Source: an uncultured Bacillales bacterium (GTDB lineage Bacteria; Bacillota_I; Bacilli_A; RF39; UBA660). Taken from it: a stretch of DNA of 64,000 bases. A program made the position numbers and the translations under genes. Positions 1 to 54,911 of this stretch are shown here, piece after piece. Numbering within the stretch: the first letter of the stretch is position 1; each line of letters opens with the position of its first letter. The notes beneath the pieces are model-generated. The model worked only from the letters and a program-made list of their open reading frames with translations, did not search any database and was not told the origin of the DNA. The stretch is taken from assembly GCA_905206805.1 (NCBI GenBank), contig CAJLIR010000003.1, positions 16,063-80,062 on the forward strand. The letters run 5' to 3'.

Positions 1-1
1 C

Positions 2-1336
2 GATAATTTAAAAAAATATGGATTTAAAATTATAAGATTAAAAACAGGAACACCACAACGTATTGATAAAAATAGTATAGATTTCAGTAAGACAAAACCA
101 GAATACGGTGATTCAACATATCATACATTCAGTTTTGATACAAATCCACTATACAAAATAGAAAATCAAGTTCCATGTCACTTAATATATACTACACCAT
201 TAACACATAAAATAATCAAAGATAATTTACATAAAGCAAGTATGTATGGTGGATTAAATGATGTTACTGGAGTTGGTCCAAGATATTGTCCATCAATTGA
301 AGATAAAATTGTAAGATTTGCAGATAAGGAAAGACATCAATTATTTCTAGAACCTGAAAGTTTATATTATGACGATATTTATCTTCAAGGTTTTTCTACA
401 AGTATGCCTCATGATGTACAAGAGTTGATGGTACATAGCTTACCAGGTCTTGAAAATGCGAAGATATTAAAATATGCTTATGCAATTGAATATGATGCGA
501 TAGATGCATTACAGTTAAAACCATCTTTAGAAACAAAAATTGTTGAAAATTTATATACAGCAGGTCAAATTAATGGAACAAGTGGTTATGAAGAAGCTGC
601 TTGTCAAGGCTTAATTGCGGGAATAAACGCAGCCTTGAAACTTGAAAATAAAGAACCATTAGTTTTAAAGAGAAATGAAGCATATATAGGTGTATTGATA
701 GATGATTTAATAACAAAAGGAGTAAGAGATCCATATAGACTATTAACATCAAGAGCGGAATATAGACTATTATTAAGACACGATAACGCTGATATTAGAT
801 TAAGAAAATTAGGATACGAAGTTGGTTTAATAGATAAAGAAAGATACAATAAACTCCTTGAAAAAGAGAAAAAAATTAATGAATTAACAGAAGAATTAAA
901 AAATAATAAAATTACACCAAAAGAAAATATAAATAATTATCTACTAAATATTAATTCATCACCAATTAAAGATGGTATTACATTATATGATTTACTAAAA
1001 AGACCAGAAATTAATATGAATGATATAAAAAATTTTATAGATATAGATTACCCAGAGGATGTAATCGAGCAAGTAGAAATTAATATAAAATATGAGGGAT
1101 ATATAAAAAAAGCAAATAGAGAAGCAGAAAAAATGTTAGACTTAGAAAATAAAAAAATTCCAGAAAATATAGATTATGATAAAATTCATAATTTAGCAAG
1201 TGAAGCAAAACAAAAATTGAAAGAAGTAAAACCTATATCAATAGGACAGGCATTAAGAATAAGTGGAGTAAATCCCGCTGATATTTCAATATTAATGATT
1301 TATATAAAAAAGGAATATAACCATGAACATAAATGA
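2..1336 (+). CDS. mnmG: tRNA uridine 5-carboxymethylaminomethyl modification enzyme MnmG/GidA; the 5' end lies outside the window and the frame is open from base 2
   Basis: Frame 2 is open from the window edge. The translation (RLKTGTPQRI... GPRYCPSIEDK... LYTAGQINGTSGYEEAA) matches conserved MnmG motifs. It is followed by rsmG, as at bacterial origins. Confidence 0.9.
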   Translation, partial: DNLKKYGFKIIRLKTGTPQRIDKNSIDFSKTKPEYGDSTYHTFSFDTNPLYKIENQVPCHLIYTTPLTHKIIKDNLHKASMYGGLNDVTGVGPRYCPSIEDKIVRFADKERHQLFLEPESLYYDDIYLQGFSTSMPHDVQELMVHSLPGLENAKILKYAYAIEYDAIDALQLKPSLETKIVENLYTAGQINGTSGYEEAACQGLIAGINAALKLENKEPLVLKRNEAYIGVLIDDLITKGVRDPYRLLTSRAEYRLLLRHDNADIRLRKLGYEVGLIDKERYNKLLEKEKKINELTEELKNNKITPKENINNYLLNINSSPIKDGITLYDLLKRPEINMNDIKNFIDIDYPEDVIEQVEINIKYEGYIKKANREAEKMLDLENKKIPENIDYDKIHNLASEAKQKLKEVKPISIGQALRISGVNPADISILMIYIKKEYNHEHK

Positions 1337-2027
1337 TTTTATAAATGAATTAAAAAAAATTAATATTGAAATAAATGATTACCAATTAAAACAATTAAAT
1401 AGATATTATGAACTTCTTGTAGAATATAACGAAAAAATGAATTTAACCGGAATTACAGAAAAAAATCAAGTTTATTTAAAACATTTCTACGATAGTCTAA
1501 CAATAAATAAAATTATTGACTTAAATACTGTTCAAACATTATGTGATGTAGGAACGGGTGCAGGTTTTCCAGGAATGGTAATAAAAATATTATTTCCCAA
1601 AATAAAAATCACATTAGTTGATTCACTTAATAAAAGAATAGAATTTCTAAATGTTGTTATTAATGAACTAGGATTAAAAGACATTGATGCTTTACATTCT
1701 AGAATTGAAGATTATGGGAAAAATAATAGGGAAATATTCGATGTTGTCACTGCAAGAGCAGTAGCACCGTTAAATATTTTGTTAGAGTATTGTACACCTT
1801 TAGTAAAATGTGGGAAATATTTTATACCATTAAAAGCCAATATTTCCCGGGAAATATTAGAAATTAATAGTGCTTTAAAAGAATTAAATTGCACAATAGA
1901 AGAAAAATGTGAATTTATACTTCCATATGAAGAAAGTCAAAGAACATTAATAAAATTTAAAAAAATAGGTAAAACTAATAAAAAATATCCAAGAGTGTAT
2001 GCTCAAATTAAGAAGAAACCATTGTAA
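1323..2027 (+). CDS. rsmG: 16S rRNA (guanine527-N7)-methyltransferase RsmG/GidB
   Basis: 234 aa with the SAM-binding motif VGTGAGFPG. The mnmG-rsmG order is conserved and the start overlaps the mnmG stop. Confidence 0.85.
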   Translation: MNINDFINELKKINIEINDYQLKQLNRYYELLVEYNEKMNLTGITEKNQVYLKHFYDSLTINKIIDLNTVQTLCDVGTGAGFPGMVIKILFPKIKITLVDSLNKRIEFLNVVINELGLKDIDALHSRIEDYGKNNREIFDVVTARAVAPLNILLEYCTPLVKCGKYFIPLKANISREILEINSALKELNCTIEEKCEFILPYEESQRTLIKFKKIGKTNKKYPRVYAQIKKKPL

Positions 2028-2123
2028 TTTGGTTTTTTTTTAATTTGTGAAAAAAATTATTGAAATATTTCCCAAAATATAGTATGATTATAACTAGAAA
2101 ATAAAAGTGGAAGGAGAATTTAT

Positions 2124-3941
2124 ATGAACCACAAAAAAATAGTTGTAGAATTAGAACTTGATGATATTTTACCTAATAGATTTCAACCAAGATTCCGTTT
2201 TCCAGAACAAGCAATCACAGAACTTGCAGAATCAATTAAAGAACATGGAGTTATTCAACCTATACTTGTTAGAAGATTAGGTGATAAATATGAAATAATT
2301 GCGGGTGAAAGAAGATATAAAGCTAGTCTTTTAGCTGGAAAAAGAACTATCCCAGCTATTGTAGCGGAACTTAATGATAAAGATAGTGCTGAAGTAGCTT
2401 TAATTGAAAACGTACAAAGACAAGATTTAACACCAATCGAAGAAGCAGTGTCATATAGAAAAATTCTTGATATGGGATATTTAACACAAGAACAACTTGC
2501 AGATAAATTAGGTAAAACTCAATCAACTGTTAGTAACAAATTAAGATTACTTAATCTAGATGATGATGTTCAAGAAGCTTTATTAGATGAAAAAATTTCA
2601 GAACGTCATGCTAGATCCCTTTTAAAAATTGATAGTAAGCAACAACAAAGAGAAATATTAGAAAAAATTATTAAAGAAAGATTAACTGTTAAAAAAACAG
2701 ATGAGCTTATAAATAAGATTTTAAAAGGTGAAGAAAATATTTCGAATACTATTCAAGCAACAGAAATACCAAGTATTTTTATGAATAATAGTGTACAAGT
2801 TGAAGAACCAGCAATTCAAAGTTCTAGTGCAATAGAATTTATCAACTCAAATGATCAAGTAGTGAATTCATTTGGCAATACTAATACAAAAGATGAAGAT
2901 TTATTAGATTTTCTTAATGTAGATAGTACTGCTCCACAAACAGCACCTGTAGAGGAACCTGATGAACCTATTATCTATAATCCAGTTCAACAAGCAGATT
3001 TTACAACTGCAAATAATATGAATGATAATTATAATATACCAACAAGTCCAATAATAGAAGAAATAGAGCCACAACCAATTTCATCTTCTTCAGTAAGTAG
3101 TAGCGAGTCGGAAATAGATGAAATAAATAATAAGATAAATAATATTTCTAATGGAATTAATCCTGGTTTTGTTGATGTTGATAACATTGAAAAAAATGCA
3201 AAAGACATTTATGTTGAAAGACCATTAGCTGATATAGATAATTTATTAATGTCAGAAAATAATGAACATGAGCAACAAAATACAAATGTAGTTAATTCTT
3301 TTAATGAGCAACCTGTAGAACAACCTGTTCAACAAAATAAGTTTTTTACAATGTTTGCACCAGAAGAAAATGAAGTAAAAAACGAAGAAATAACTGATAC
3401 AAACGATGAAGAAGTATTTAATTTTACACCATCAATTGAAAGTAATAATTCTTTAAATCAATTTTTAACGGAAGAAGAACCTGTCACAACTGAAAATAAT
3501 ATTAATAATGTTGAAAGCACAGTAACACCTGAATTTTCATTTAACAATATTGATGCGATAAATAACAATATTAATGAAACACCAGAAATTTTAAATAGTA
3601 CCCCTGAAGTAACAACAGAAGAAATATTTGAATCTGCACCAATTACAGAATTGAATTATTCTAATGAAGATTCTATAGAAGAAATAGATGATGAACCAAA
3701 AATAATTAATTATCCTGCAGATAATATTCTTGCAGAATCAGTAAGAAAAGAAGATGTATTAGAAACAAAACAAGAACAAACTTCAGATGAATCAGTAGTT
3801 GATTTAAAAACTGTAATCAATACAATCAGAAACTGCGCTGATACAATAGAAAAATATGGTTTCGCACTTGAATGTGAAGAATATGATTTTGAAGATATGT
3901 ATCAAGTAATTTTCAAAATTCAAAAAAATGATAAATATTAA
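2124..3941 (+). CDS. ParB/Spo0J/Noc-family protein with a long acidic low-complexity C-terminal tail
   Basis: The N-terminus has the ParB nuclease-like box (IIAGERRYKAS; LIENVQRQDL) and an HTH (QEQLADKLGKTQSTVSNKLRLL). The remaining ~400 aa are rich in D/E/N/S/T and look disordered. RBS GGAAGGAG precedes the start. Confidence 0.7.
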   Translation: MNHKKIVVELELDDILPNRFQPRFRFPEQAITELAESIKEHGVIQPILVRRLGDKYEIIAGERRYKASLLAGKRTIPAIVAELNDKDSAEVALIENVQRQDLTPIEEAVSYRKILDMGYLTQEQLADKLGKTQSTVSNKLRLLNLDDDVQEALLDEKISERHARSLLKIDSKQQQREILEKIIKERLTVKKTDELINKILKGEENISNTIQATEIPSIFMNNSVQVEEPAIQSSSAIEFINSNDQVVNSFGNTNTKDEDLLDFLNVDSTAPQTAPVEEPDEPIIYNPVQQADFTTANNMNDNYNIPTSPIIEEIEPQPISSSSVSSSESEIDEINNKINNISNGINPGFVDVDNIEKNAKDIYVERPLADIDNLLMSENNEHEQQNTNVVNSFNEQPVEQPVQQNKFFTMFAPEENEVKNEEITDTNDEEVFNFTPSIESNNSLNQFLTEEEPVTTENNINNVESTVTPEFSFNNIDAINNNINETPEILNSTPEVTTEEIFESAPITELNYSNEDSIEEIDDEPKIINYPADNILAESVRKEDVLETKQEQTSDESVVDLKTVINTIRNCADTIEKYGFALECEEYDFEDMYQVIFKIQKNDKY

Positions 3942-3997
3942 AAGAATATACTTTATTGTATATTTCTTTTTATATAAAATAATTTGGAGGTAAAAAA

Positions 3998-4429
3998 ATG
4001 AAAAAAGATAATAAAAATAAAGAAAAAATTAAAATTACAAACAACATAAAAAAAGAAGTAAATGAATTTAAAACTTTTATTTCTAGAGGAAACGTTGTTG
4101 ATATGGCAATAGGTGTTATAATTGGTGGAGCATTTGGAAAAATTGTTTCAAGTCTTGTAAATGATATATTAATGCCACTAATCGGAATAGTATTAGGAGG
4201 ACTTGATTTTAGCAGTTTAAGTATCAAAATTAATGATGCTACTATTGCTTATGGAAATTTTATCCAAACAATCGTTGATTTTTTAATAATCGCCTTTTGT
4301 ATATTTGTAATGATTAAAATATTTGAAAAATTCAAAACAAAAGAAGAAAAAAAGAAGGAAGAACCAGTAAAAAGTTCTGAAGTTATTCTTTTAGAAGAAA
4401 TAAGAGATTTACTAAAAAATAATAAATAG
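3998..4429 (+). CDS. mscL: large-conductance mechanosensitive channel MscL
   Basis: 143 aa. The motif [34 protein letters not shown] is the canonical MscL TM1 region. RBS GGAGG precedes the start. Confidence 0.85.
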
Positions 4430-4555
4430 TCAAAGTTTTATTTATTATCAAAGTTATCACTTGTAATATCTGTTAATAAAATGATATATTAATTATATAC
4501 ATTTTAATTACATATAGAAAAAATTATGAAATAGATGTAAAGATGAGAATGATAT

Positions 4556-5300
4556 ATGCCAAAAATAAGTGTTATTATATCAATTTATAATTTTGAAACA
4601 ATGTATCTCAAGTATAACTAATCAAACCATGAAAGATATAGAAATAATAGCAATTAATGATGGATCTATAGATAATGACTTAAACATATTAGATAGTATG
4701 TCACAACAATATAAAGGTAAAATAAAAATATTTGACAAAGAAAATGGTGATGCAAGTTCTGCTAGAAATATTGGAATAGAAAATGCAATTGGTAAATTTA
4801 TTAAATTTGTGGATGCTGATGATTATTTGGGTATAGATGCTTTGAATAAAATATCACAAGAGAATAATGTTAAACTGGTTAGAGGAAATTATTAAACTAT
4901 AATAGGACCAATTAAAATGTAAGATAAATTAGTTTTAATAATAAAAAAGGTAATAAAATTGTAAATGTAAGAGAAAACAAAGATTATATTTTGACAGAAA
5001 CTCCGAGAATTGGTAATAGACTTATAAGTCGTGATTTGATAGGTGATTTAGGATTTCCAGAAAAACAAAATGGGAAGATTTAGCCATAATTCCTATTATT
5101 GTAGCTAACTCAGAAAAACTATTTAATATTGATGAACTTGTTTATAATTAGTAGAATCAATATTAATACTACAGTAAAAGATTTTATTAATAAAATTCCA
5201 AATATTTTAGATATATTTAAGTGTTTAGGAAGTATCGAGAGTAAGTTGAAATCATTAGGATTGTCAGAATAATACAATAACCAAATTGAAAGCTTATATA
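4556..5300 (+). pseudogene. family 2 glycosyltransferase remnant, frameshifted and interrupted by stops
   Basis: ATG at 4556 encodes MPKISVIISIYNFE, a GT2 N-terminus, then hits a stop. The GT2 DxD region (IIAINDGSIDN...VDADDYL) continues in another frame (ORF 4569..4895). The next 400 bp hold only short stop-riddled fragments. Confidence 0.5.
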
Positions 5301-5618
5301 TTCTACATACATTATTTAGAATTGAAAAAGCTATGCTTTTGGTTAATCTTCAGCATTAAAAAAAAGAAATAGTAATAAGTTCTTTACTAGGAATTTTAGA
5401 AGTAAAATACCCATATTGGTATGAGAATAAAATTATACAACAATATAGAAAACGAATAGATTATTTGATTTTCATATGAGAGTATTAGGTAATTTTATAA
5501 ATGAAAAATATAAAAATATGGATAGTGAAACAGCAGAAGCAAATATATTAAAATCTATTAAATAATTGACAAAATATAAAAATAGTATATAATATTCAAA
5601 TAAATATGGAGGGATAAT

Positions 5619-6395
5619 ATGGATACATTAAAAATAGGAAGTTTTAATACCAAAGATAATGCTACTAATAGAAAAGGTGGAATGCGAGAAGATGGTATTT
5701 CGAATGCTGATATTTTGGCTAGTCAAATAAAAGAAAATGAATTTGATTTAATAGGAACACAAGAATTAACAATTAAATATGTAAATGAACTTGTTTCAAG
5801 ATTAAAAGATTATAAATTTTATGGGAGTTATCGCTATGGAAACTTATTAACAAAAATACCATTTAATGAAAATAACAATATTATTACAAAGAAAAATGTT
5901 GTATTACAAAATACAATTTGGTTGCCTTGGATAGCTAATAATTTTTCCGACTTCAAAGACTCAATAACTAAAATGTCAATAATGCCACGTATTGCAACTA
6001 TTGTTGTTATAAAGAATCAAATAAATGAAGAAATATGTATGATTAATACTCATTTAGATTATCAAATACCATCTATTCAAAAAAGACAATTACAAGCTTT
6101 AAAACAAATAATTGAAAAGTATTCTAACAAATATCCAATAATATTAACTGGAGATTTCAATATGGAAATTACCGATCAAAATTTTAAAGATTTTATTTCA
6201 GATGTTAAAGATAAAAATTTAAAACGTGTAGAAATAAATGAAAGTACTTGGTATGATAAAAATGGAAATGGTAAAACATTGGATCATATATTTTTACCTA
6301 ATGACTGGGATATTCAAAATGCTGGTATTATAGATTTAAAAGATACATCAGATCATAAAGGAATTTTCGTAGAGACAAATGTAAAACATAAATAA
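5619..6395 (+). CDS. endonuclease/exonuclease/phosphatase (EEP) family protein
   Basis: 258 aa with EEP-family blocks (GTQEL; INTHLDY; ILTGDFNM; TLDHIFL). A strong RBS GGAGGG precedes the start. No signal peptide. Confidence 0.65.
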   Translation: MDTLKIGSFNTKDNATNRKGGMREDGISNADILASQIKENEFDLIGTQELTIKYVNELVSRLKDYKFYGSYRYGNLLTKIPFNENNNIITKKNVVLQNTIWLPWIANNFSDFKDSITKMSIMPRIATIVVIKNQINEEICMINTHLDYQIPSIQKRQLQALKQIIEKYSNKYPIILTGDFNMEITDQNFKDFISDVKDKNLKRVEINESTWYDKNGNGKTLDHIFLPNDWDIQNAGIIDLKDTSDHKGIFVETNVKHK

Positions 6396-6420
6396 GTTTG
6401 AATATAAAACTAGTCTTCAA

Positions 6421-6466
6421 TTGATATGAACCCCGTTTCTTGGACATAGAAACGGGGTTCATATCA
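6421..6466 (+). terminator. Rho-independent terminator-like hairpin after the EEP gene
   Basis: Perfect inverted repeat GATATGAACCCCGTTTCT / AGAAACGGGGTTCATATC with GC-rich stem and short loop, immediately downstream of the stop at 6395. Confidence 0.6.
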
Positions 6467-6592
6467 GATTTACACTTACCAACACTATTTATAATAAAAC
6501 CATATAAATAAATTTGTAACTTAGTTAGTATATGGTTAAATATTATAATATAGTTGGTTAATAAATAATTTTTATATAAGGAGCATTTTAAT

Positions 6593-7711
6593 ATGAAATA
6601 TGATAAATCAGAAGAGAAAGAAAAGTTAGAAAAAACAAATGAAGAATTAATTAAATTTATGAAAGAATATCCTAAAAAAATTATATCATTAACTGCAATT
6701 GGAAATTCAATTAGTGATGGATATTCTATGTCAGAACCTGGGAGATTACTTTTAGATAGAAATTTAGGATTAATAGAAATTGGTAAAAAAAATGATGTCA
6801 TAGTTAGAAAATATCAACTTTCTAGAAGTGAAAATAATAATTCATTGGCAGTAGCAAATTGGATCCGTAATAATTGTACCGAACAAGATTCTTATAATTG
6901 GAACATAGAAGATTATAAACGGGCTATAAAAAATGGTAATACTTTACTGACAGAAGAAGAAATAGAAAAGTATTTATCAAATGGCAGTAATAAAAAAATA
7001 CAAGATGTAATATTGAAATCAAAACAAGAAGAAGCTAATATCGTTATTTTAAATTTAGGTACAGGGTCATTTTTAGATATTTTAACAAGGCATGGAAGTT
7101 TAACAATACCTAGTATTTTTGGTTCATTACAAAGAGATATAATGGGAATATCTCAAATTTTAGAATTAATACAAAATAGTAATAGAGAAAATAAACAGCA
7201 TACACAAGTATATTTATGTGGCGCACCTAGAGTGATGAATACAGTAATAACTGATTTGACAATGAATACCTCTATAAAAAAAATAGGTAAAGAATATGCT
7301 AATGTTACGTACGTTCCATCATTTCCAAGACAAGCTTTTTATAAAACAGAAAATGGATTAATTTTACCTGATCCACATTATAATCATGCTGAATATTATC
7401 ATTTTTTAAATGAAATTGAAAAAAATATTATAAATAGTTATTTAGTTAGAGATTTAATGATAGATATGGATAATATGTTGTATCAGTTAAGTAGAGAAAA
7501 TGATATCAAAGGTGCAAGTAATAATAGTGATGATGCATTAGATATTATAAAGAGTATTGCAAAAAAATATGAAAATAAAGATGGTGATTATAATTATTTT
7601 CTTGAACTATCAAAAGTATATATTAAAAATAGATATCCGTTTGATTTCTACAGACTTTCACCTAAAAAAAATATTGGTAATAGTATAGATAACTTGAAGA
7701 AAAAAAGATAA
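6593..7711 (+). CDS. hypothetical cytoplasmic protein, possibly SGNH/GDSL-like hydrolase
   Basis: 372 aa. The N-terminal block AIGNSISDGYS resembles SGNH block I (GDSxxD). A later DPHYNH could be a block V D-x-x-H. Good RBS (AAGGAG). The assignment is weak. Confidence 0.45.
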   Translation: MKYDKSEEKEKLEKTNEELIKFMKEYPKKIISLTAIGNSISDGYSMSEPGRLLLDRNLGLIEIGKKNDVIVRKYQLSRSENNNSLAVANWIRNNCTEQDSYNWNIEDYKRAIKNGNTLLTEEEIEKYLSNGSNKKIQDVILKSKQEEANIVILNLGTGSFLDILTRHGSLTIPSIFGSLQRDIMGISQILELIQNSNRENKQHTQVYLCGAPRVMNTVITDLTMNTSIKKIGKEYANVTYVPSFPRQAFYKTENGLILPDPHYNHAEYYHFLNEIEKNIINSYLVRDLMIDMDNMLYQLSRENDIKGASNNSDDALDIIKSIAKKYENKDGDYNYFLELSKVYIKNRYPFDFYRLSPKKNIGNSIDNLKKKR

Positions 7712-7898
7712 TAACATTAAAAATAATGGAAAAAAATCATTATATTAAAGATAAAATAAATTATATTTCTTTTAAACTTAGAACATTTTTTATAAAAAAA
7801 TCATTAATTATTATAAAAAATATATAAAAACTTTATAATCACAAATTTAATTACTATTTTCAATAATCTTACTTTATACTTTAGTTTTAACTTATAAA

Positions 7899-7970
7899 AA
7901 AACACTTGTGAATCAATTATATGATGAGTTAAAAATTTTATTTTCAAATAATCATGTTGAATATTTTGTT
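7899..7970 (+). pseudogene. short relic of a uvrB 5' end (about 24 codons)
   Basis: In-frame translation is [24 protein letters not shown]. It matches UvrB residues KTLAGQLY(G/A)ELKE(L/I)FP(N/D)NHV(E/C)YFV seen in the 8860 fragment and the intact uvrB at 45801. No start codon; it sits in AT-rich non-coding DNA. Confidence 0.45.
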
Positions 7971-8138
7971 TTATTTATATAAATATACTAAAAAGATTTT
8001 TAAGATTTATTTAATATCTCTAAAATAACATAAATAAAACTATATAAAATTATAAATGATAAAATAAATTTGTGTACAAAAACTAAAAAAAATGTTACTA
8101 TATATACTATAATGTTATATAGGAATGGAGATTAGAAT

Positions 8139-8540
8139 ATGGCAACATTAAACTTGCAAAGCGGTTATATTGCCGACGCAATAATAGAAACAAAGAAAAA
8201 CAGATTTAATGAAAATTTTACAACAATGGGTGAAGTTAATATTGTTAAACAAGTGGTTGAAAGAAGAATTCAAGAAGAAAATTTAAAAGTTCAAATTACT
8301 AATGGTTTTTTTGACAATTATTTTAATATCATAAATGGAGTAATTACTAAAAATGATAAAGAATTTCAAACTTTAAAGATTTTTATATCAGGAAGTAATA
8401 TTCGTGAAACAAATAAAATTCGTGAAACAATTTATGATGAAAATTTAATTTGTTTATGTCTTTGTGAAATTAAAAATAATCAACTTAAACTTAATAATGT
8501 AAAAAATAAATATAAAATACACAAGTTCAACTTGCGATAG
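8139..8540 (+). CDS. hypothetical protein
   Basis: 133-aa ORF with RBS GGAATGGAG. No recognisable motifs. Confidence 0.4.
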   Translation: MATLNLQSGYIADAIIETKKNRFNENFTTMGEVNIVKQVVERRIQEENLKVQITNGFFDNYFNIINGVITKNDKEFQTLKIFISGSNIRETNKIRETIYDENLICLCLCEIKNNQLKLNNVKNKYKIHKFNLR

Positions 8541-8859
8541 CTTATGCTATGGTTTATTACGTGGAGAACATGTAAATGATTGTAGTAAATGGACTCATAA
8601 TTTAGAAAAAATAATAAAACAATTGAAATATAAGATTGTTGTAGAAAGATTTTTTTATAAGTATAACAATAAAACAGGAAGTTTGTGCTTCCTTGTTTTA
8701 CTTTCAAATAAGTGTTAAAATTATTACTAGAAAATATTTAATTTTACTTTGTTATATTTATTAATTTGTAATTCAGACTCACTTATTTGTGTATCTATAA
8801 AATTTTATTAGTATATTAAATCTTAGAATACAAATTAATATTTATGTAAGGAGGAATTT

Positions 8860-9126
8860 ATGTTTGAATTAGTATCAAAATTTAAACCAAATGGTGATCA
8901 ACCAGAAGCAATAGATGCACTAGTTAATGGAATAAATGAGGGAAAAAAACATCAGGTTTTACTAGGTGCCACTGGAACAGGAAAAACATTTACAATCGCA
9001 AATGTGATTGCTAATGTTAATAAACCAACACTAGTTTTGGCTCATAATAAAACTCTTGCCGGTCAATTATACGGTGAATTAAAAGAATTATTTCCAAATA
9101 ACCATGTTGAATACTTTGTCTCATAG
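8860..9126 (+). pseudogene. truncated uvrB 5' copy encoding only the first 88 aa of UvrB
   Basis: The 88-aa translation carries GDQPEAI and the Walker A motif GATGTGKTF and aligns at about 80% identity to the N-terminus of the intact UvrB at 45801. It has its own RBS AAGGAGG and stops right after NHVEYFVS. It lies just outside the left repeat of the ICE. Confidence 0.8.
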
Positions 9127-9229
9127 TATAGTAACCACTCGAAAACCCTTTTATTTCAAGACTTTTAGTTTTATTTAGTCCCTCGAAAATACCAAAAAAA
9201 GACTAAATAAAACTAAATAATAAAATGTA

Positions 9230-9254
9230 AATTTGTGGCTGAAATTCGTATCCA
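9230..9254 (+). repeat. left copy of the 25-bp direct repeat (candidate attL core) AATTTGTGGCTGAAATTCGTATCCA
   Basis: Identical 25-mer to 45670..45694. Next to it is a 16-bp inverted repeat TTAGTTTTATTTAGTC / GACTAAATAAAACTAA (9166..9216) holding TTATTTAGTC motifs that also occur twice beside the right copy. Confidence 0.6.
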
Positions 9255-9362
9255 TTCGTGTCCACTATAAATATATATCTAAACTGATTTATTTAATCAG
9301 TTTTTTTTGTGTTTACTTTGCTGCGTAGAGATAGCGTGGCAGATTAGAAAGGAGGAAAGTAA

Positions 9363-27987: not shown

Positions 27988-28128
27988 AAAATTTTATAGT
28001 TTCAAAAAAGGTTTAAGATATAATATCAATTACTAGATTATAGGAAGTTGGTATTTTTTATAGAGTAAGTTCTATGATTACAAATAACAAACTATTAAAT
28101 AAAGTAAAAAATAAGGAGGAAAAACGTT

Positions 28129-29510: not shown

Positions 29511-31852
29511 TGAAAAAAGTGAAAACTCTTAAAAATTTATTTAAACAGGATAAAGAAAAATTTATAGTTCCAAAAGGGGTACAAGATGTAATACCAATCA
29601 CTAGAGTATGGGAAGATGGTATTTTTTTATGTGGAAAAAATAAATATTCAAAAAGTTTTATGTTTACTGATATTAATTATACAGTAGCAAGTAAACAAGA
29701 TCAGGAGGCAATGTTTTTAGAATATTCTGAGTTATTAAATTCATTAGATAATGGAGCAACTTCTAAAATTACCATTTCTAATAGAAAAATAAATAAGATA
29801 GATTTTGAAAAACGCGTTTTAATTCCAAAAGAAGAAGATGATCTTAATAGATATAGAGATGAATATAACAATATGTTATTAGAAAAAATAAGTAGTACAA
29901 ATGGCATAGTTCAAGAAAAATATTTAACTATTTCTATAAATAAAAAATCAATAGAAGAAGCAAGAAATTATTTTACAAGAATAAGTGCTGATCTAATAAG
30001 TAAATTTTCTGCTCTTGGTTCTAAATGTATTGAATTAGATACTATAGATAGATTGAAAATAGCTCACGACTTTTATAGAGTTGGTGATGAAAATGCTTTT
30101 TTCTTTAATTTAAAAGACAGTATGCAAAAAGGACATAGTTATACTGATTATATATGTCCTGATACAATGGAATTTAAAGATGATTATTTTAAGATGGGAA
30201 ATAGGTATGGAAGGGTAATATTTTTAAAAGATTATGCTTCTTATATAAAAGACACAATGGTTGCAGAGTTGACAGAAATTGACAGAAATATGATGTTAAG
30301 TTTAGATGTTGTACCAGTTCCAATGGATGAGGCTATAAAGGAAGTTGAAAACAGAAGACTTGGTGTAGAAACAAATATTACTAATTGGCAAAGAAAACAA
30401 AATGCTAATAATAACTTTTCAGCAATTATACCTTATGATATGGAACAACAAAGAGCAGAAAGTAAAGAATTTTTGGATGATCTAACAACTAGAGATCAAA
30501 GGATGTTTTTAACTGTATTAACTTTAGTACATACAGCTGACACAAAAGAACAACTGGATAATGATACAGAATCTCTTTTAACTATAGGAAGAAAAAATCT
30601 ATGTCAATTTTCTATATTAAAATTTCAACAAATGGATGGACTTAACACTGTAATGCCATTTGGTGTTAGAAAAATTGATTCATTAAGAACATTAACTACA
30701 GAATCTCTAGCTGTATTTATGCCATTTAAGGTTCAAGAAATAAATCACGAAAATGGGATCTATTATGGGCAAAATGTTATAAGTAAAAATATGATAATTG
30801 CTGATAGAAAACAATTATTAAATGGTAATAGTTTTATTTTAGGAGTAAGTGGTAGTGGTAAATCATTTACAGGTAAAAATGAAATAGTTTCTATAATTCT
30901 TCGTGATCCAAAAGCTGATGTAATAATAATTGATCCAGAGCGTGAATATTCATCATTAACTAACGCATTAAATGGTGAAGTTATCAAAATTTCAGCAACT
31001 AGCAAAAATCATATAAACGCAATGGATATAAATGCCAATTATGGAGATGGTACTAACCCAGTAATTTTAAAATCAGAATTTATTTTATCTCTATGTGAAC
31101 AACTAATCGGAAGTAAGAATTTAGGACCAAAACAAAAATCTATAATTGATAGATGTACAGCAAATGTTTATAGAAATTATCAACAAAATAATTATCAAGG
31201 GAATCCGCCAACATTACAAGATTTTAGAAAAGAACTATTAAAGCAAGAAGAAAAAGAAGGAAAAGAAATAGCACTTGCAATCGAGTTATTTACAGATGGA
31301 TCACTTAATACATTTGCTAAAGAAACTAATGTTAATACCGACAATAGATTAATATGCTATGATATTTTAGATCTAGGAAAGCAACTGTTACAAATAGGTA
31401 TGTTAGTAGTATTAGATAGTATTTTAAATAGAATAACAATGAATAGAAGTAAGGGAAGAAATACATACATTTTTATAGATGAAATTTATTTGTTATTCCA
31501 ACACGAATATTCAGCTAATTTCTTATTTACTCTATGGAAGCGTGTGCGTAAATATGGAGCTTATGCAACAGGTATAACACAAAATGTAGATGATCTATTA
31601 CAATCTCATACTGCACGAACTATGCTTGCTAATTCAGAATTTATAGTTATGCTTAATCAAGCATCTACAGACAGGCTAGAACTTGCTAAATTATTAAATA
31701 TTTCAGAATTACAAATGAGTTATATTACAAATGTTGGTGTAGGACAAGGATTAATTAAAGTAGGTAGTAATTTAGTACCTTTTATAAATAAATTTCCTAA
31801 AAATACTAAACTTTATAAGTTAATGACAACAAAACCAAATGAAGAAGAATAG
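29510..31852 (+). CDS. VirB4/TrsE/PrgJ-family conjugal transfer ATPase
   Basis: 780 aa. Walker A LGVSGSGKSF, Walker B/DE box YIFIDEIYLL, typical VirB4 length. The start may be the GTG at 29519 rather than 29510. Confidence 0.85.
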   Translation: MKKVKTLKNLFKQDKEKFIVPKGVQDVIPITRVWEDGIFLCGKNKYSKSFMFTDINYTVASKQDQEAMFLEYSELLNSLDNGATSKITISNRKINKIDFEKRVLIPKEEDDLNRYRDEYNNMLLEKISSTNGIVQEKYLTISINKKSIEEARNYFTRISADLISKFSALGSKCIELDTIDRLKIAHDFYRVGDENAFFFNLKDSMQKGHSYTDYICPDTMEFKDDYFKMGNRYGRVIFLKDYASYIKDTMVAELTEIDRNMMLSLDVVPVPMDEAIKEVENRRLGVETNITNWQRKQNANNNFSAIIPYDMEQQRAESKEFLDDLTTRDQRMFLTVLTLVHTADTKEQLDNDTESLLTIGRKNLCQFSILKFQQMDGLNTVMPFGVRKIDSLRTLTTESLAVFMPFKVQEINHENGIYYGQNVISKNMIIADRKQLLNGNSFILGVSGSGKSFTGKNEIVSIILRDPKADVIIIDPEREYSSLTNALNGEVIKISATSKNHINAMDINANYGDGTNPVILKSEFILSLCEQLIGSKNLGPKQKSIIDRCTANVYRNYQQNNYQGNPPTLQDFRKELLKQEEKEGKEIALAIELFTDGSLNTFAKETNVNTDNRLICYDILDLGKQLLQIGMLVVLDSILNRITMNRSKGRNTYIFIDEIYLLFQHEYSANFLFTLWKRVRKYGAYATGITQNVDDLLQSHTARTMLANSEFIVMLNQASTDRLELAKLLNISELQMSYITNVGVGQGLIKVGSNLVPFINKFPKNTKLYKLMTTKPNEEE

Positions 31853-42174: not shown

Positions 42175-42549
42175 ATGAAAAAAATTAAACGAGGAGAAAT
42201 ATTTAATGCCAATTTAGATCCTGTTCTAGGACACGAACAGGGTGGAAATAGACCAGTTTTAGTTTTACAAAATAATCATAGTTTAAAAAGATGCCCAACT
42301 GTTTTGGTAGCACCTTTAACAAAAATGATCAATAAGAAATACGATTTACCCACACACGTATATATTGAACCTTCTAATTATTTAAAATATGATTCGGTGG
42401 TCTTAGCTGAGCATATTAGAGAAATAGATAGATTGAGAATAACATATTACTTAACAACATTAACAAAAAAACAACAAAAATTGGTAGATAAGGCAATTAT
42501 AAACGCATTTGGATTAAGTATTAAGGAGATAAATTTATATGAGAAATAA
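42175..42549 (+). CDS. MazF/PemK-family endoribonuclease toxin
   Basis: RGEIFNANLDPVLGHEQGGNRPVLVLQNN...VLVAPLT is the canonical PemK/MazF N-terminal signature. RBS GGAGGA. Confidence 0.75.
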   Translation: MKKIKRGEIFNANLDPVLGHEQGGNRPVLVLQNNHSLKRCPTVLVAPLTKMINKKYDLPTHVYIEPSNYLKYDSVVLAEHIREIDRLRITYYLTTLTKKQQKLVDKAIINAFGLSIKEINLYEK

Positions 42550-42842: not shown

Positions 42843-43043
42843 ATGAATAATGATATAGAAAAAAAGGTTTACAATGCAACAGAGATTCAAAAAATGCTAG
42901 GGATGGGGAAAAATAGATTATATGAATATTTAGAAGAAGTATATAAAAAACAAACCCCATTTAGAGTATTAAAATTTGGAAAAATATACAAAGTTCCAAA
43001 ACAAGCCTTCGATAATTGGATAAATGGTTATCAAGTGTCATAG
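42843..43043 (+). CDS. xis: excisionase/Xis-like small HTH DNA-binding protein
   Basis: 66 aa, basic, with an HTH (ATEIQKMLGMGKNRLYEYL) and a C-terminal ...KVPKQAFDNWI. It lies immediately upstream of the integrase, as for Tn916-type Xis. Confidence 0.55.
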   Translation: MNNDIEKKVYNATEIQKMLGMGKNRLYEYLEEVYKKQTPFRVLKFGKIYKVPKQAFDNWINGYQVS

Positions 43044-43055
43044 GAGAGATGGTTT

Positions 43056-44255
43056 ATGAAAAAAACAAAACTAACTTGGGGAAAAAGTGGGATAGTTTTC
43101 TTTGAAGGTTCATCGTGGGGATTTAGATATAAAGAAAGGTTAGAAGATGGATCAACTAAATATGGAAAAGTTAAGGGATATGCAACGGAACAAGATGCTG
43201 TAAAAGATTATTATATATATGAAGAAAAATTTAAAGAAAAAAGTAGAGAATATGAAGTAAGCATTAACAAAGATATAATGTTTGTTGATTACCTGATTTA
43301 TTGGTTTGAAAATATATATTCTGAACGAATAGAAACAACAACAAAAATGGTTAGTTCATATATCATATATAATTTAATCGTGCCTAGTATTGAATATAAT
43401 TTAAAAATAAATTTAGTAACAACTGATTATTTAGACGATATAATAAAAAGAGCTTCTAATTTAACAGAAAGTGGCGGATATTCTGCAAGGATGATTATAA
43501 TTATGGCAATGAAAGATGCATTGATTGGTGGATATATTTCACACAATCCATCTTTAGATACTAAACAATACAGAAGAAAAAAACCTAAAATTAGAGTATA
43601 TACTAAAAGGCAATTAAAGAGATTTTTAACAGCATCCCAATCATCAAATTGGTATCTTGAAATATTATTAGGATTATTTTGTGGACTTCGTAAGGGTGAA
43701 ATAATGGGACTTAAATTTTCTGATTTTGATATGGAAAATAGAACTGTGAAAGTGGAAAGACAAATAGCAAAAGAATATGAATTAGAAAAAAATACTAGTA
43801 AAATTACAAAATGTTCATTAGTAGAAAAAAATCCAAAGACCCCTGAAAGTATAAGAACACTTAAAGTTCCCGATATAATTATAGAAGAATTAGAGAAAAG
43901 AAATGAAAAAGTAAATTTAGATAAAGCAATTTATAAAAATAAATATATAGATAATAATTATATATCTTGCACAGAAATAGGGGTAGTGCATTCTCAATCA
44001 TCTTTAAATGCTAGAATAATAAAAATATGCAGACAACTAAGTTTACCAGATTTGACCGTACACGGTTTAAGACATATGTGTGCAACAATTCTATTAGAAA
44101 GTGGAGCTTCACTTGCTAAAATACAAGCATTTCTAGGGCATAGATCAATCCATACAACATTTGAATATTATTGTGAGGTAATGGATGAAAAAGATAAAAT
44201 ATTGGCATTTATGAATAATATTTTTGCTATTGAAGATGGTGATACGAAATGTTAA
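43056..44255 (+). CDS. int: tyrosine-type site-specific integrase (Int-Tn-like, with N-terminal arm-binding domain)
   Basis: Catalytic-domain motifs LRKGEIMGLKFSDFD (Arg box), HGLRHMCAT (HxxR), LGHRSIHTTFEYY (His and Tyr nucleophile). Confidence 0.85.
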   Translation: MKKTKLTWGKSGIVFFEGSSWGFRYKERLEDGSTKYGKVKGYATEQDAVKDYYIYEEKFKEKSREYEVSINKDIMFVDYLIYWFENIYSERIETTTKMVSSYIIYNLIVPSIEYNLKINLVTTDYLDDIIKRASNLTESGGYSARMIIIMAMKDALIGGYISHNPSLDTKQYRRKKPKIRVYTKRQLKRFLTASQSSNWYLEILLGLFCGLRKGEIMGLKFSDFDMENRTVKVERQIAKEYELEKNTSKITKCSLVEKNPKTPESIRTLKVPDIIIEELEKRNEKVNLDKAIYKNKYIDNNYISCTEIGVVHSQSSLNARIIKICRQLSLPDLTVHGLRHMCATILLESGASLAKIQAFLGHRSIHTTFEYYCEVMDEKDKILAFMNNIFAIEDGDTKC

Positions 44256-45547
44256 CAAAAGAACAAATGCGGAAAGTTTATAATGATTATACAGTATATT
44301 CTGTATTAAAATTAAAAGATAAATACGGATTTAAGGTTAAGCTGACATTTATAGATGGACAGCAAGAAATAAGGCAAATAGGTGGTTTTAAAACAAAAAA
44401 AGAGGCAAACCTAGAAAGAGATAAAGTTGTAGCACAATTAGTCAACCACTCCTATGTTGTTTATCCAAAAATAAAAAGTAGTGAGTATTTTGAATATTGG
44501 TTAGAAATAGTGATGAAACCTAATTTAACATATAATAGTTATATGTCATATAGAAATGTAGTTAATAATTATGCTATCCCATATTTCAAAAATTACTACA
44601 TTAATCAAATAAATATGGGACATATTCAAAAATTTTATAATGAAGTTTCAATTAAATATAAATCGATAGCAAAGTTATCAAAAGTAGTATTAAATTCAGC
44701 ATTTGAATATGCTAAAAAGAATAATTTAATTAATACTAATCCAACATTAAATGTTAGACTTCCGAAAGGAATTGATACATCATATAATAAGGTTCAAGTA
44801 ATTGATATAGAAAAGACATTTAATATTGAACAGATAAAATTAATAATTGAGAAAAGTAAAGAAACACCAATATATTTACATATATTATTTGCGTTGTTGA
44901 TGGGATTAAGAAAGCAAGAAATTAATGGAGTAAAATATTCAGATATTGATTATGTTAATAGAAAATTATATTTAAAAAGGCAACTAGGAATTGATCCAAA
45001 TAAATCAAAAGAAGATTGTAAGAAAAAAACATACACGAAACAGGAAATAAAATTAAAAACCTTTTCAAGTGAAAGGGTACTTGATATACCTGATATGGTT
45101 TTTGAGGCAATACAAGAACAAAGAAAAATTTATGAAACAAATAGAAGAAGGAGAATAAATGATAAAACAACTCCCTTTACTGATTTAGGATTTATTTGTT
45201 GTTCTACCTATGGGCATCCAAGAAGTAAAGGGTTTCATAAAAGATATTATGATAAACTATTAGAAGAAAATAATTTACCAAAAATTAGATTTCACGATTT
45301 AAGACATACATATACCACATTATTATTAATGAATAATCACGATTTAAAGGCTGTATCAGAACTACTAGGACACTCATCAACAATAATTACATCAAGTACA
45401 TATTTTGACAAGAATAAAATAATTGTTGATTGTAATAAAGAATTAAATTCATTTATTGAATTAGTTAAACCAGATGAAAACTTGTATTCATCAGATACAA
45501 TAATAGACATAGATACAAATGATATTTTGGCAAAATATTTATATTAA
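44249..45547 (+). CDS. second tyrosine-type site-specific integrase, diverged paralog
   Basis: LRKQEINGVKYSDID; HDLRHTYTT; LGHSSTIITSSTY. It overlaps the stop of int1 by 7 nt, suggesting co-transcription. Confidence 0.85.
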   Translation: MLTKEQMRKVYNDYTVYSVLKLKDKYGFKVKLTFIDGQQEIRQIGGFKTKKEANLERDKVVAQLVNHSYVVYPKIKSSEYFEYWLEIVMKPNLTYNSYMSYRNVVNNYAIPYFKNYYINQINMGHIQKFYNEVSIKYKSIAKLSKVVLNSAFEYAKKNNLINTNPTLNVRLPKGIDTSYNKVQVIDIEKTFNIEQIKLIIEKSKETPIYLHILFALLMGLRKQEINGVKYSDIDYVNRKLYLKRQLGIDPNKSKEDCKKKTYTKQEIKLKTFSSERVLDIPDMVFEAIQEQRKIYETNRRRRINDKTTPFTDLGFICCSTYGHPRSKGFHKRYYDKLLEENNLPKIRFHDLRHTYTTLLLMNNHDLKAVSELLGHSSTIITSSTYFDKNKIIVDCNKELNSFIELVKPDENLYSSDTIIDIDTNDILAKYLY

Positions 45548-45669
45548 ATATATACATAATAATAAGGAAAGACTGTTGTAGCTTTCCTTGTTTTATTGTT
45601 AAATTAGTGTTAAAATAAGTTACTGGAAAACATTTAGTTTTACTTGGTTTTATTTAGTCTTATTTAGTC

Positions 45670-45694
45670 AATTTGTGGCTGAAATTCGTATCCA
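45670..45694 (+). repeat. right copy of the 25-bp direct repeat (candidate attR core)
   Basis: Identical to 9230..9254. Two TTATTTAGTC motifs precede it (45650..45669). An inverted partial copy (TGGATACGAATTT) lies at 45758..45770. Confidence 0.6.
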
Positions 45695-45800
45695 AGCAAA
45701 AAAGACACATTTTTGGGGTTATAAAAATGAATTAGGATACGCATTTTTGATAATTGGATACGAATTTTAGGCTGGTAATAATCGTAGTAAGGAGGACAAT

Positions 45801-47771: not shown

Positions 47772-47953
47772 TTGTACATTTATCGACAAATTATTTACAT
47801 TTTAATCAATATATTTATTATGTAATTAATTTAGTTAAAAAAGTAATATATTTATATATAATAAAAAAAGGTAATATTTTAGTAAAATATATTAAATTTA
47901 TCAAAATGTATTCATTTGCAACTTAATTAATAAATGATATAATTTAATAGGAG

Positions 47954-48391
47954 ATGAAAAAGATGGCAAAGAAAAAATTTGAATATAAAAAATTCAATTC
48001 TATGTTTGACTGGATATTAAAAATGATAGGTTATGCCTTAATTCTTATCTGTATATCAACTGTATTAGGAAGTGATAAATCAATTTATATAGATCCTAAC
48101 TATTTCGGATTATGGGGACTTTTAACTGCGATTTTAATATACATATTAAATAAAACAGTAAAACCGCTAATAGTATGGTTAACACTACCTCTAACAGGAC
48201 TTACATTAGGATTGTTTTATCCTTTAATAAATGTTTTTATCTTAAAACTAGTTGATTTGATATTATGGAAGCATTTTGATATTACAGGTGGTATATTTAT
48301 GAGTTTTTTCGTTGCTATATTAATTTCAATATTAAATATTATAATGGATAGTATTATTTTTAAAGGAATACTTGGAGAGGAGAGAAAATAA
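47954..48391 (+). CDS. hypothetical integral membrane protein
   Basis: 145 aa with 4 predicted TM helices and RBS AGGAGATG. Confidence 0.45.
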   Translation: MKKMAKKKFEYKKFNSMFDWILKMIGYALILICISTVLGSDKSIYIDPNYFGLWGLLTAILIYILNKTVKPLIVWLTLPLTGLTLGLFYPLINVFILKLVDLILWKHFDITGGIFMSFFVAILISILNIIMDSIIFKGILGEERK

Positions 48392-51039: not shown

Positions 51040-51045
51040 GTAACT

Positions 51046-51975: not shown

Positions 51976-52082
51976 TATTGTTTATCCTTTTAAAATTAGA
52001 AATTATTTCCTAATTTATTTAAAAAAATAATAAAGACATATTGTTCTATTTGTAGTATAATATATGTTGGATGGAGGTATAT

Positions 52083-53513: not shown

Positions 53514-53523
53514 GTGATGTAAT

Positions 53524-54900: not shown

Positions 54901-54911
54901 GAAGTGATTAT

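Follow-up and report, generated by a model that had tools for sequence, protein, structure and literature searches.

The DNA-repair gene uvrB occurs three times, once intact and twice as a fragment, in a 64,000-nucleotide stretch of DNA from an uncultured Bacillales bacterium (contig CAJLIR010000003.1, positions 16,063 to 80,062; "the window" hereafter means this whole stretch). The window has a GC content of 25%, and the neighboring genes are mnmG, rsmG, a noc/parB-like gene, and mscL. From the end of the nearer fragment (copy B) into the intact gene, whose front end we call copy C, runs a segment of 36,962 bp that we interpret as an ICE (integrative and conjugative element); farther upstream, the second fragment (relic A) adjoins what appears to be the decayed end of an older element of the same family. 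The features on which the argument depends are listed here, all on the forward strand. Contigs or loci that were compared with the window in this analysis are designated by L-numbers, and proteins by P-numbers.

7826–7974, forward: relic A, a decayed and frameshifted uvrB 5' fragment (residues ~42–88), recognized by homology; 15% GC
7975–8074, forward: putative decayed left end (attL side) of an older element, with homology to 9127–9237 in the left part of the present ICE
8139–8540, forward: open reading frame (ORF) of 133 codons in the old remnant, a shortened member of a family of 157–166 residues
8656–8859, forward: uvrB leader upstream of copy B, with a hairpin (8676–8693), a promoter-like segment (8693–8721), and a ribosome-binding site (RBS)
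8860–9126, forward: copy B, a displaced resident uvrB 5' end of 88 codons with RBS and ATG, identified by its match to conspecific UvrB
9126–46087, forward: ICE, 36,962 bp, delimited by identity boundaries and an empty site
45801–46073, forward: ICE-borne replacement uvrB 5' module (copy C), consisting of a seven-codon extension (MEQKDTK) and codons 1–84, recognized by chimerism and third-position GC content (GC3)
45801–47771, forward: intact chimeric uvrB, 656 residues, an uninterrupted ORF with all UvrB Pfam domains
46088–47771, forward: chromosomal remainder of uvrB, 561 codons, 98–100% identical to conspecific UvrB

Three uvrB front ends that stop at one core

Both upstream relatives of the intact uvrB that a preliminary description had picked out from the sequence alone were recovered by blastn and tblastn. 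The nearer one, described as an 88-residue fragment with its own RBS and start codon and about 80% amino acid identity, proved to match positions 45822–46085 of the intact gene at 198 of 264 nucleotides (75%; blastn E = 4e-57) and 69 of 88 residues (78%), and its 88-residue product matches the Pfam family ResIII. The farther one, placed at 7899–7970, is a genuine, start-less, decayed relic, but its extent had been drawn too short, the homology spanning 7826–7974. Over 93 shared nucleotides relic A is 78% identical to copy B and 63% identical to copy C. Searches of the window by tblastn gave E = 1e-39 and 3e-6 for the uvrB fragments, with alignments that are specific to the N-terminus of UvrB and extend well beyond the Walker A motif; they revealed no further uvrB fragment in the window. 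The same arrangement was assembled independently from other samples (L002, L013, and L015). All three copies terminate at one 14-bp core, TAYTTTGTNTCNTA, and the common end point in UvrB that had been claimed earlier is thereby borne out.

Copy B had been regarded as an extra copy, perhaps from a donor of another species. A protein search with the UvrB of the window returned about twenty clusters of 649-residue proteins that are 96–97% identical to it overall, with the differences concentrated N-terminally. The first 88 residues of these conspecific proteins (P0002 and others) are 98–100% identical to copy B and 78–80% identical to the N-terminus of the window protein, and the residues after window position 95 are 98–100% identical to those of the window protein. 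At the DNA level, the conspecific contigs L003 and L004 are 99.3–99.4% identical to the window from position 1 to 9129 and then continue directly with the equivalent of ~45837–57771; precise empty sites were found in L003–L006. Because the ICE-free conspecifics carry copy B, joined straight to the chromosomal remainder of uvrB, copy B is the species' own uvrB front end, and the first 95 codons of the seemingly intact gene are the imported part. The product of 8860–9126 is 99–100% identical to the UvrB N-terminus of ICE-free conspecifics, and the notion of a foreign or extra copy was given up.

The imported module (45801–46073) together with the core encodes the first 95 residues of the chimeric UvrB. 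This N-terminus, ending in ...HVCYFVS, is 100% identical across proteins whose remainders differ, being 99% identical to that of the window in this species, 78% in P0039, P0040, and P0056–P0058, and 76% in P0105. The module thus travels with the element and sits unchanged on at least three host backgrounds, as expected from the earlier suggestion that elements carry a replacement 5' segment of uvrB. Its GC3 is 0.25; copy B has 0.12 and the remainder of uvrB 0.13. Identical copies aside, the sequence nearest to it is the corresponding module of a variant ICE (P0059, 94%). The Cys that replaces Glu in HV(E/C)YFVS is frequent among UvrB homologs, which suggests that the substitution is tolerated.

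Two other kinds of UvrB front end were noticed. The N-terminal module of P0087 (L028, contig ERZ15610049 NODE_8585, uvrB at 762–2729) starts as ICE-type and ends as host-type; there is no integrase gene within the 760 nucleotides upstream of this uvrB, and the match to the ICE is confined to the last ~38 nucleotides before the start codon. The locus looks like the scar of a homologous exchange within the duplicated 270-nucleotide uvrB segment or of the loss of an element. A further N-terminal type with a seven-residue extension (MEKNKKA...), analogous to the MEQKDTK of the ICE module, was seen in P0098, P0100, P0104, and P0115–P0119 and at L036–L040, in the species that has two or three upstream uvrB relics. 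Such seven-residue extensions may mark front ends of element origin.

The boundaries of the element were drawn from comparisons with other backgrounds. On the left, identity is 70–85% up to ~9120 and 97–100% from ~9121 onward in five other backgrounds; on the right, identity to L007, from another species, is 97–100% from 43087 to ~46087 and then drops to ~75%. Near-identical element DNA (97–100%) is therefore present in species whose chromosomes are ~75% identical. The segment combines an integrase pair, att repeats, a specific site, and an empty site in relatives with a relaxase, a type IV coupling protein (T4CP), and a VirB4-type ATPase, the last two scoring above curated cutoffs. On these grounds 9126–46087 is, as judged from its sequence, a site-specific ICE that would rebuild its target gene. 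The features of an element that replaces a 5' end are likewise present: the crossover lies in the 5' coding region, a full-length ORF is restored, and the original 5' end is outermost.

Core, arms, and the recombinase pair

The core TAYTTTGTNTCNTA encodes Tyr-Phe-Val-Ser-Tyr, codons 86–90 of the 649-codon uvrB gene. The attachment sites, the ends of the element, and the genes of the integration module are as follows.

9112–9125, forward: attL core, TACTTTGTCTCATA, from comparison of att sites
46074–46087, forward: attR core, TACTTTGTATCATA, from comparison of att sites
attB (L003): ...GAA TACTTTGTTTCTTA TTATGAT...
attL (window): ...GAA TACTTTGTCTCATA GTATAGTAACC...
attR (window): ...TGT TACTTTGTATCATA TTATGAT...
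9127–9264, forward: left arm of the ICE (P'), with a perfect 16-nucleotide inverted repeat (9165–9180 and 9201–9216) and arm motifs
45548–45800, forward: right arm of the ICE (P), with a hairpin, a uvrB leader (45584–45656), arm motifs, and an RBS
42843–43043, forward: candidate excisionase (Xis), 66 residues, HTH_17-like (E = 2.7e-4, below the Pfam cutoff), just upstream of Int1
43056–44255, forward: Int1, tyrosine recombinase, 399 residues (PF00589), paired with Int2 in all relatives
44249–45547, forward: Int2, tyrosine recombinase, 432 residues (PF00589), overlapping Int1 by 7 nucleotides

The first base of the ICE converts a Tyr codon to TAG, completing the stop codon of copy B at 9124–9126, and for this reason every displaced fragment ends after ...YFVS. 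All 16 of the attL and attR junctions that were read (16/16), from at least five backgrounds, fall inside the same 14 bp. In addition, the identical ParA was found in ten contexts, which represent four or more chromosomal backgrounds and include the two local variants of this species, and in each of them (10/10) a truncated uvrB fragment, of 88 residues or, in L018, of 95, lies directly upstream and is cut at the core; 256 blocks of the assembly collection are indexed for the element's ParA sequence. The recurrent recombination point inside the 5' region of uvrB that had been surmised is in this way pinned to a fixed 14-bp core, present in all junctions read and on multiple backgrounds. At all 28 matched sites among the loci compared at that stage, from several species, the core is unchanged save for wobble bases, and 116 of 120 UvrB homologs match the pattern of the motif that contains the core product. 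So strongly conserved a target would explain a broad host range for the ICE.

The core varies at positions 9 and 12, both of them wobble positions, and empty attB sites show polymorphism there as well (T and T in L003, C and A in L004). We had considered heteroduplex resolution as the source of this variation, and rejected it on account of the polymorphism in empty sites. In the window these bases are C and A at attL and A and A at attR, which would locate the exchange in TCATA, provided that no later mutation has occurred. In the attP that can be reconstructed from the two ends, a 6-bp dyad (GTTACT-N14-AGTAAC), as read by eye, brackets the core and is centered on the TCATA stretch. A relaxed attL pattern matched one contig, L026, in the JGI metagenome collection.

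Outside the core, the sequence GGATACGMATTT occurs without mismatch four times, in each case at an end of the ICE: 9242–9253 and 45682–45693 on the minus strand, and 45735–45746 and 45756–45767 on the plus strand. Chance would give 0.55 matches at one mismatch or fewer. The left arm has the putative motif, GGATACGAATTT, on the minus strand at 9242–9253 with a degenerate second copy at 9254–9264, and the right arm contains, at 45667–45694, a 28-nucleotide repeat of the left end. The variable part of the motif shifts with the variant of the integrase (GGACACGAATTT, TGTACGAATTT, and GGGGACGAATT). We infer that the copies of GGATACGMATTT are arm-type binding sites for the recombinases. A second candidate arm motif, TTTATTTAGTC, was dropped because it was not enriched (8 found versus 8.25 expected).

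Int1 and Int2 share only ~25% identity, and direct reading of their sequences shows the pattern R...HxxR...H...Y in both. Against NCBIfam they match generic Xer and integron-integrase models only, far below the cutoffs. Int2 has 778 homologs at E ≤ 1e-20, and those with 71% (L027), 67% (P0125), 57% (P0185), and 52% (P0230) identity are each encoded by a gene that has an Int1-like gene before it and uvrB directly after it; P0185 is indexed in 144 blocks, and the host of P0230 carries yabP, yabQ, and divIC. A scan of genome contigs for Int2 found six loci, all in metagenome-assembled genomes (MAGs) of uncultured Bacilli or Clostridia. Related elements have a small ORF of ~66–67 residues at the position of the candidate Xis, and the version in L029–L032 shows a faint match to HTH_17. 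The right ends of the family are built alike: int2 is followed by a hairpin, after which come a conserved leader, AAATTTGTGGC, three copies of the NNNNACGAATTT motif (one of them inverted, the other two direct), an RBS, and finally the uvrB 5' module. The related ICEs with a 5' segment of uvrB at their flank that the preliminary description had asked for thus exist.

A gene for a PemK/MazF protein lies a few hundred bases 5' of the Xis–Int1–Int2 block, and equivalents occur in L027, L029–L032, and L035; the relatives that share this position have Int2 proteins at 57–71% identity. It is likely a stabilization module tied to the integration module.

The leader of copy B is homologous to the right end of the ICE (8656–8760 versus 45549–45656, z = 17.4). 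By eye, the hairpin at 8676–8693 is terminator-like and is followed at 8693–8721 by a promoter-like TTGTTT-17-TGnTAAAAT; scans with consensus promoters and terminators gave no more matches than expected from shuffled sequence, or fewer, and left the uvrB promoters undefined. The leader is a conserved noncoding sequence, found at 8693–8760 and 45588–45656 and in L005, L011, L012, L016, L017, L022, L025, L027, and L035, whose layout comprises the hairpin, with compensatory changes in its stem, the promoter-like TTGTTT-17-TGnTAAAAT, and ATTACTAGAAAACATTTAGTTTTA with an AAAAC/GTTTT inverted repeat. This leader may combine a promoter with an operator, and it lacks the canonical GAAC-N4-GTTC form of an SOS box.

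An older integration and the proposed mechanism

Relic A does not stand alone. A single alignment of 7826–8074 with 8983–9237 (69% over 263 nucleotides, E = 1e-20) passes beyond the uvrB part into the left end of the ICE, and for the non-uvrB part taken by itself the score is 38, compared with an average of 15.6 and a highest value of 24 among shuffled sequences (z = 10.7). The core next to relic A is degenerate (TATTTTGTTTTATT versus TAYTTTGTNTCNTA) and adjoins no intact arm motif; as judged from its sequence this core is probably inactive, and the remnant is probably no longer cis-mobilizable. Only the 133-residue ORF, which has no Pfam or NCBIfam match, and the uvrB leader lie between relic A and copy B, and a search of 4400–8860 with all ORFs of the ICE and with Int1 and Int2 gave no significant relic of an ICE protein, recombinase, or transfer gene. 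With an attL-like flank at 7826–8074 and, at 8656–9126, a flank like a right end with a uvrB 5' module, the remnant has the layout of a cis-mobilizable element (CIME). With its start at 9126, the present ICE comes immediately after copy B, as would a later element that had entered the att site on the target-gene side of the remnant.

A similar structure is present in another species. At L036–L040 the gene immediately before uvrB encodes a 162-residue homolog of the 133-residue ORF. Upstream of that gene comes a uvrB 5' pseudogene of nearly full length, which has a leader of its own, and at three of the five loci another relic lies farther upstream. Positions 7882–8618 of the window are 71% identical over 748 nucleotides to 4736–5458 of L036; the order uvrB relic, left end, 133/162-residue gene, leader, and uvrB is common to the window and the L036-type loci; and in a multiple alignment the landmarks of the left end (TATAG after the core, CCTTTATTT, and AAATTTGT) line up in all. 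An extension of relic A upstream to ~7718, indicated by one BLAST alignment to L037, was unconvincing in the multiple alignment and was discarded. Within the 133-residue ORF, at 8398–8430, are two direct copies of ATTCGTGAAACAA 17 nucleotides apart, which on the minus strand read TTTCACGAAT(T/A)T and resemble NNNNACGAATTT. The two copies may once have served the old element as arm sites, or they may simply be a coding repeat (the peptide IRET occurs twice).

Other loci offer parallels. ERZ15609937 NODE_15 carries a variant ICE that has a uvrB module of its own and whose Int1' and Int2' are 59% and 71% identical, respectively, and the attL fragment of that contig is the ICE-type 95-residue module, adjoining a relic of the 3' end of Int2; L022 and L025 have pieces of an Int2 pseudogene just upstream of uvrB. 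Because relic A continues into an ICE left end, because the arrangement is shared with another species, and because of the parallels in NODE_15, L022, and L025, serial integration at uvrB followed by decay, as proposed in the preliminary description, is well supported by these sequences.

As a separate observation, L007 and L008 (3996–10290) have only a ~6-kb element between flank and uvrB, encoding NUDIX and MFS proteins, Int1, and Int2, which begins with a 127-nucleotide duplicate of the 3' end of int2 and the right end. The sister contig L018 has the same flank, then that right end, a 95-residue uvrB fragment, and the full ICE. This suggests that the element of L007 and L008 decayed by deletion between repeated right ends.

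The accreted, decayed DNA had been delimited as 4556–9229. Of this stretch, only 7826–9126 bears signs of derivation from an element, and 9127–9229 belongs to the intact left end of the ICE. For 4556–7825, which contains the GT2 pseudogene, an EEP gene, and a 372-residue ORF, no homology to the ICE was found, and we therefore do not count it as debris of elements; it varies among strains. The EEP, 372-residue, and GT2 proteins had no relatives in the ICE or in the flanks from other species then compared. Contigs L005, L006, and L010, with the same UvrB, are without the segment of the GT2 pseudogene; 4492–5572 is absent from them, and 6420–8687 is replaced by ~820 bp with a minus-strand collagen-like ORF. 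This alternative segment is 94% identical to L016 and ~89–90% identical to L018 and L007, far above chromosomal identity, and as judged by that identity is itself laterally exchanged.

We propose that the ICE at 9126–46087 integrated site-specifically into codons 86–90 of uvrB and rebuilt a chimeric gene, and that relic A is an older scar of such an event; we put the probability of this reading at about 0.85. Site-specific recombination at TAYTTTGTNTCNTA, catalyzed most likely by the tandem tyrosine recombinases Int1 and Int2 with the aid of the small Xis-like protein, would insert the 36,962-bp element into the chromosomal uvrB. Because the P arm of attP would supply a full replacement for all that precedes the core (a leader or promoter of uvrB type, an RBS, and 95 codons), integration would rebuild the full-length chimeric uvrB at 45801–47771, leaving the host promoter and first 88 codons, copy B, stranded at the left end of the ICE. 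Relic A with its decayed left end would be the front end displaced by an earlier element of the same family, which would have shrunk to ~1.15 kb (7975–9126), devoid of recombinase and transfer genes, before the present ICE integrated in the att site at its right end, an instance of tandem accretion. The comparisons above establish the junctions, the empty site, the chimerism in different species, and the association of the Int pair with uvrB throughout the family. By the logic of the site, copy B should itself have been delivered by the older element; the homology of its leader is no proof of this.

Several points weigh against this account. The assignment of the 66-residue ORF as Xis rests on a match below the Pfam cutoff, and the activity of Int1, Int2, and this ORF as proteins is deduced from their sequences. 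Wobble polymorphism at core positions 9 and 12, in hosts and ICEs alike, means that the exact cleavage sites are not fixed. No excised circle or attP junction was found, the attP-like pattern being unmatched in the JGI metagenomes; this negative is uninformative because that collection hardly contains the element, which occurs there once only. Since all related species have this leader in front of uvrB, its similarity does not prove that copy B was delivered by an ICE, and the comparison of the distal leader of copy B with the arm-site region was not significant (z = 2.5 and 1.5) and is not evidence. Finally, L005, L006, and L010 carry copy B without relic A, and relic A may have entered the lineage by lateral replacement of the neighboring segment.

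The last point is the basis of an alternative that we think unlikely, though not far-fetched: copy B would have been inherited vertically and never have been mobile, and the relic-A segment (~6420–8687) would have been imported by homologous replacement from a relative with an old integration, so that the window would hold a single integration made in this genome together with a scar acquired from elsewhere. The strains with identical UvrB that have no relic A and different DNA at 6420–8687 fit this view, particularly as the breakpoint lies exactly at the leader hairpin, as do the conserved leader in all species and an identity of 97.5% near the variable region compared with 99.3–99.5% elsewhere. 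The replacement segment is, however, itself shared laterally, as noted above, and in L018 stands beside an Int2 relic, and the relic-A structure is collinear with that of another species and differs from it about as much as chromosomal DNA typically does, in keeping with old vertical inheritance; moreover, any integration at the core must replace the 5' end.

The remaining alternatives concern the origin of the junctions and of the copies. RecA-dependent recombination between uvrB and an element-borne homolog could draw on ~270 nucleotides that are 75% identical to the target, and the hybrid module of P0087 is what an exchange upstream of the core would produce, but breakpoints should then scatter over the 270 nucleotides rather than fall 16 times out of 16 within 14 bp on at least five backgrounds, and two conserved recombinases, an Xis-like ORF, and co-varying arm motifs would have no place; we hold this to be highly improbable. 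No greater weight attaches to the earlier suggestion that imprecise excision captured copy C, recently and from this host. An ancestor of the element must once have gained a uvrB 5' end and leader from a chromosome, and the leader is indeed of chromosomal type, but copy C is only 75% identical to copy B, is identical in protein across at least three backgrounds, including hosts whose UvrB differs by 22–24%, has twice the GC3 of the host, and finds its nearest non-identical relative in the variant ICE module P0059 (94%). As for an assembly artefact, or chance similarity to Walker-A ATPases, the short length of relic A is the one point in favor, and it is set against copies that are diverged rather than identical, the same assembly in independent samples, alignments specific to UvrB well past Walker A, and the ResIII match; the chance of it is practically nil.

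Known systems and the remaining genes

Integration that restores a gene is already known (SXT in prfC, islands in dusA); uvrB is a target without an earlier report that we could find. In the case of SXT, prfC was reportedly shown in 1999 to be restored by an element-borne 5' end and promoter. ICEs of the SXT/R391 group sit in the 5' end of prfC and form tandem arrays there (PMC2791158, PMC5812530). As in that group, a tyrosine-recombinase ICE occupies the 5' part of a conserved housekeeping gene, with a shared site and tandem arrays (PMC5812530). Unlike SXT, which belongs to the Gammaproteobacteria, targets prfC, and has a single Int with Xis and an unrelated MPF-F transfer system, the present element is from another phylum and targets uvrB, and the segment it replaces is long, 88–95 codons including the Walker A motif. 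It does not belong to SXT/R391, given its uvrB target and a T4CP that scores 35 bits against SXT_TraD (cutoff 366), no direct comparison of Int1 and Int2 with Int_SXT having been made; the resemblance is one of mechanism only. The islands and prophages of dusA with DAI integrases have the same anatomy and likewise form a family defined by the association of integrase and target (Farrugia et al. 2015, PMC4482086), but they are proteobacterial, have one integrase, are mostly nonconjugative, and target a dispensable tRNA-modification gene, whereas here an ICE with an integrase pair targets a DNA-repair gene.

For the accretion, the precedent is ICESt1/ICESt3 and CIMEs at fda of Streptococcus thermophilus, for which a three-step model has been proposed (Pavlovic 2004; Bellanger 2011; PMC5704250). 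The order of 7826–9126 followed by the ICE fits that model (PMC5704250); unlike accretion at fda, which is at the 3' end of the gene, it is here at the 5' end, and the attL core and arms of the remnant are degenerate. Pairs of tyrosine recombinases are known from ICEPmu1 and ICEMh1 (PMC6861422), which also have two adjacent genes at one end, presumed to act jointly. Those elements are likened to ours by gene layout, their targets being tRNA-Leu or att554 rather than uvrB. In its transfer genes the element resembles the firmicute MPF-FA systems of CD1110/CD1115 type from C. difficile, with VirB4, T4CP, a PF03432 relaxase, DUF3801, PrgI, ArdC, and a DUF3991/Toprim primase. The CD1110 and CD1115 loci lie in CTn4, a Tn1549-like element. 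Unlike that of Tn1549, the integration module here consists of an Int pair, a uvrB target, and a gene-restoring attP.

A search of a full-text literature collection found no earlier report of uvrB as a target of an ICE or prophage; uvrB appeared there only as cargo (PMC7466150). A specialist will not be surprised by the mechanism; what is notable is the size and prevalence of the family, the exchanged front end of UvrB, and an attP with two integrases. A core DNA-repair gene would join the short list of protein genes whose 5' end serves as a docking site and is repaired by the incoming element, and the family, large, uncharacterized, and widespread in uncultured human-gut Bacilli (778 Int2 homologs; ParA in 256 blocks), could be found, along with its remnants, by the simple marker of a uvrB core next to an Int pair. 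Chimeric, horizontally moving N-termini of UvrB can mislead uvrB phylogeny, the binning of MAGs, and pseudogene calls; 88-residue "ResIII" ORFs are att scars. The long-armed attP with two recombinases and co-varying motifs should be tractable for the study of heteromeric tyrosine integrases.

A bolder set of ideas, which taken together we judge speculative and quite improbable, is that in this gut-Bacilli clade the uvrB promoter with 88–95 codons is a cassette that ICEs carry and pass from species to species, that occupancy by Int and Xis couples repair to the ICE, and that the stranded fragment is expressed. The segment reaches from the Walker A domain to the base of the beta-hairpin, and most "native" front ends may be former ends of elements. 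Because the putative arm sites lie between a uvrB-type promoter and the RBS, occupancy could couple nucleotide-excision repair to the state of the element, and the stranded promoter and 88-codon fragment could be expressed as a Walker-A peptide.

The other genes of the ICE are listed here by position, all on the forward strand; except where stated, they were identified by domain search. The element also encodes a DUF3801 protein.

9363, forward: ParA
10144, forward: ParB
11937, forward: thioester/SpaA adhesin, 1220 residues
15574, forward: sortase
17554, forward: primase (DUF3991/Toprim)
19767, forward: MOBP-type relaxase (PF03432, E = 2e-38; matches to NCBIfam relaxase models only far below cutoffs)
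22975, forward: T4CP, VirD4-type (NCBIfam conju_CD1115, 515 bits; cutoff 250)
25124, forward: VirB6-like protein
25960, forward: ArdC
27619, forward: PrgI
29510, forward: VirB4 (NCBIfam conju_CD1110, 1029 bits; cutoff 325)
34635 and 36569, forward: two ABC/FtsX transporters
38946, forward: S26 peptidase
42175–42549, forward: MazF/PemK toxin

A 72-nucleotide direct repeat (83% identical; 27988–28059 and 29556–29627, spacing 1568 nucleotides) has one copy upstream of a 367-residue ORF (28129) and a second where the VirB4 ORF begins, and may represent a duplicated translation-initiation or N-terminal region. Outside the element, the chromosomal Noc/ParB-like protein (2124–3941), which has no Pfam match beyond ParB_N and HTH_ParB, is 605 residues long, and its counterparts in related species have 537–539 and 694–709 residues. 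Finally, we note that the adhesin gene contains three tandem repeats of 273 nucleotides (87–89% identical; 14673–15491) and two of 291 nucleotides (73%; 13083–13664), and that the adhesin is 1208, 1220, or 1299 residues long across copies of the element.

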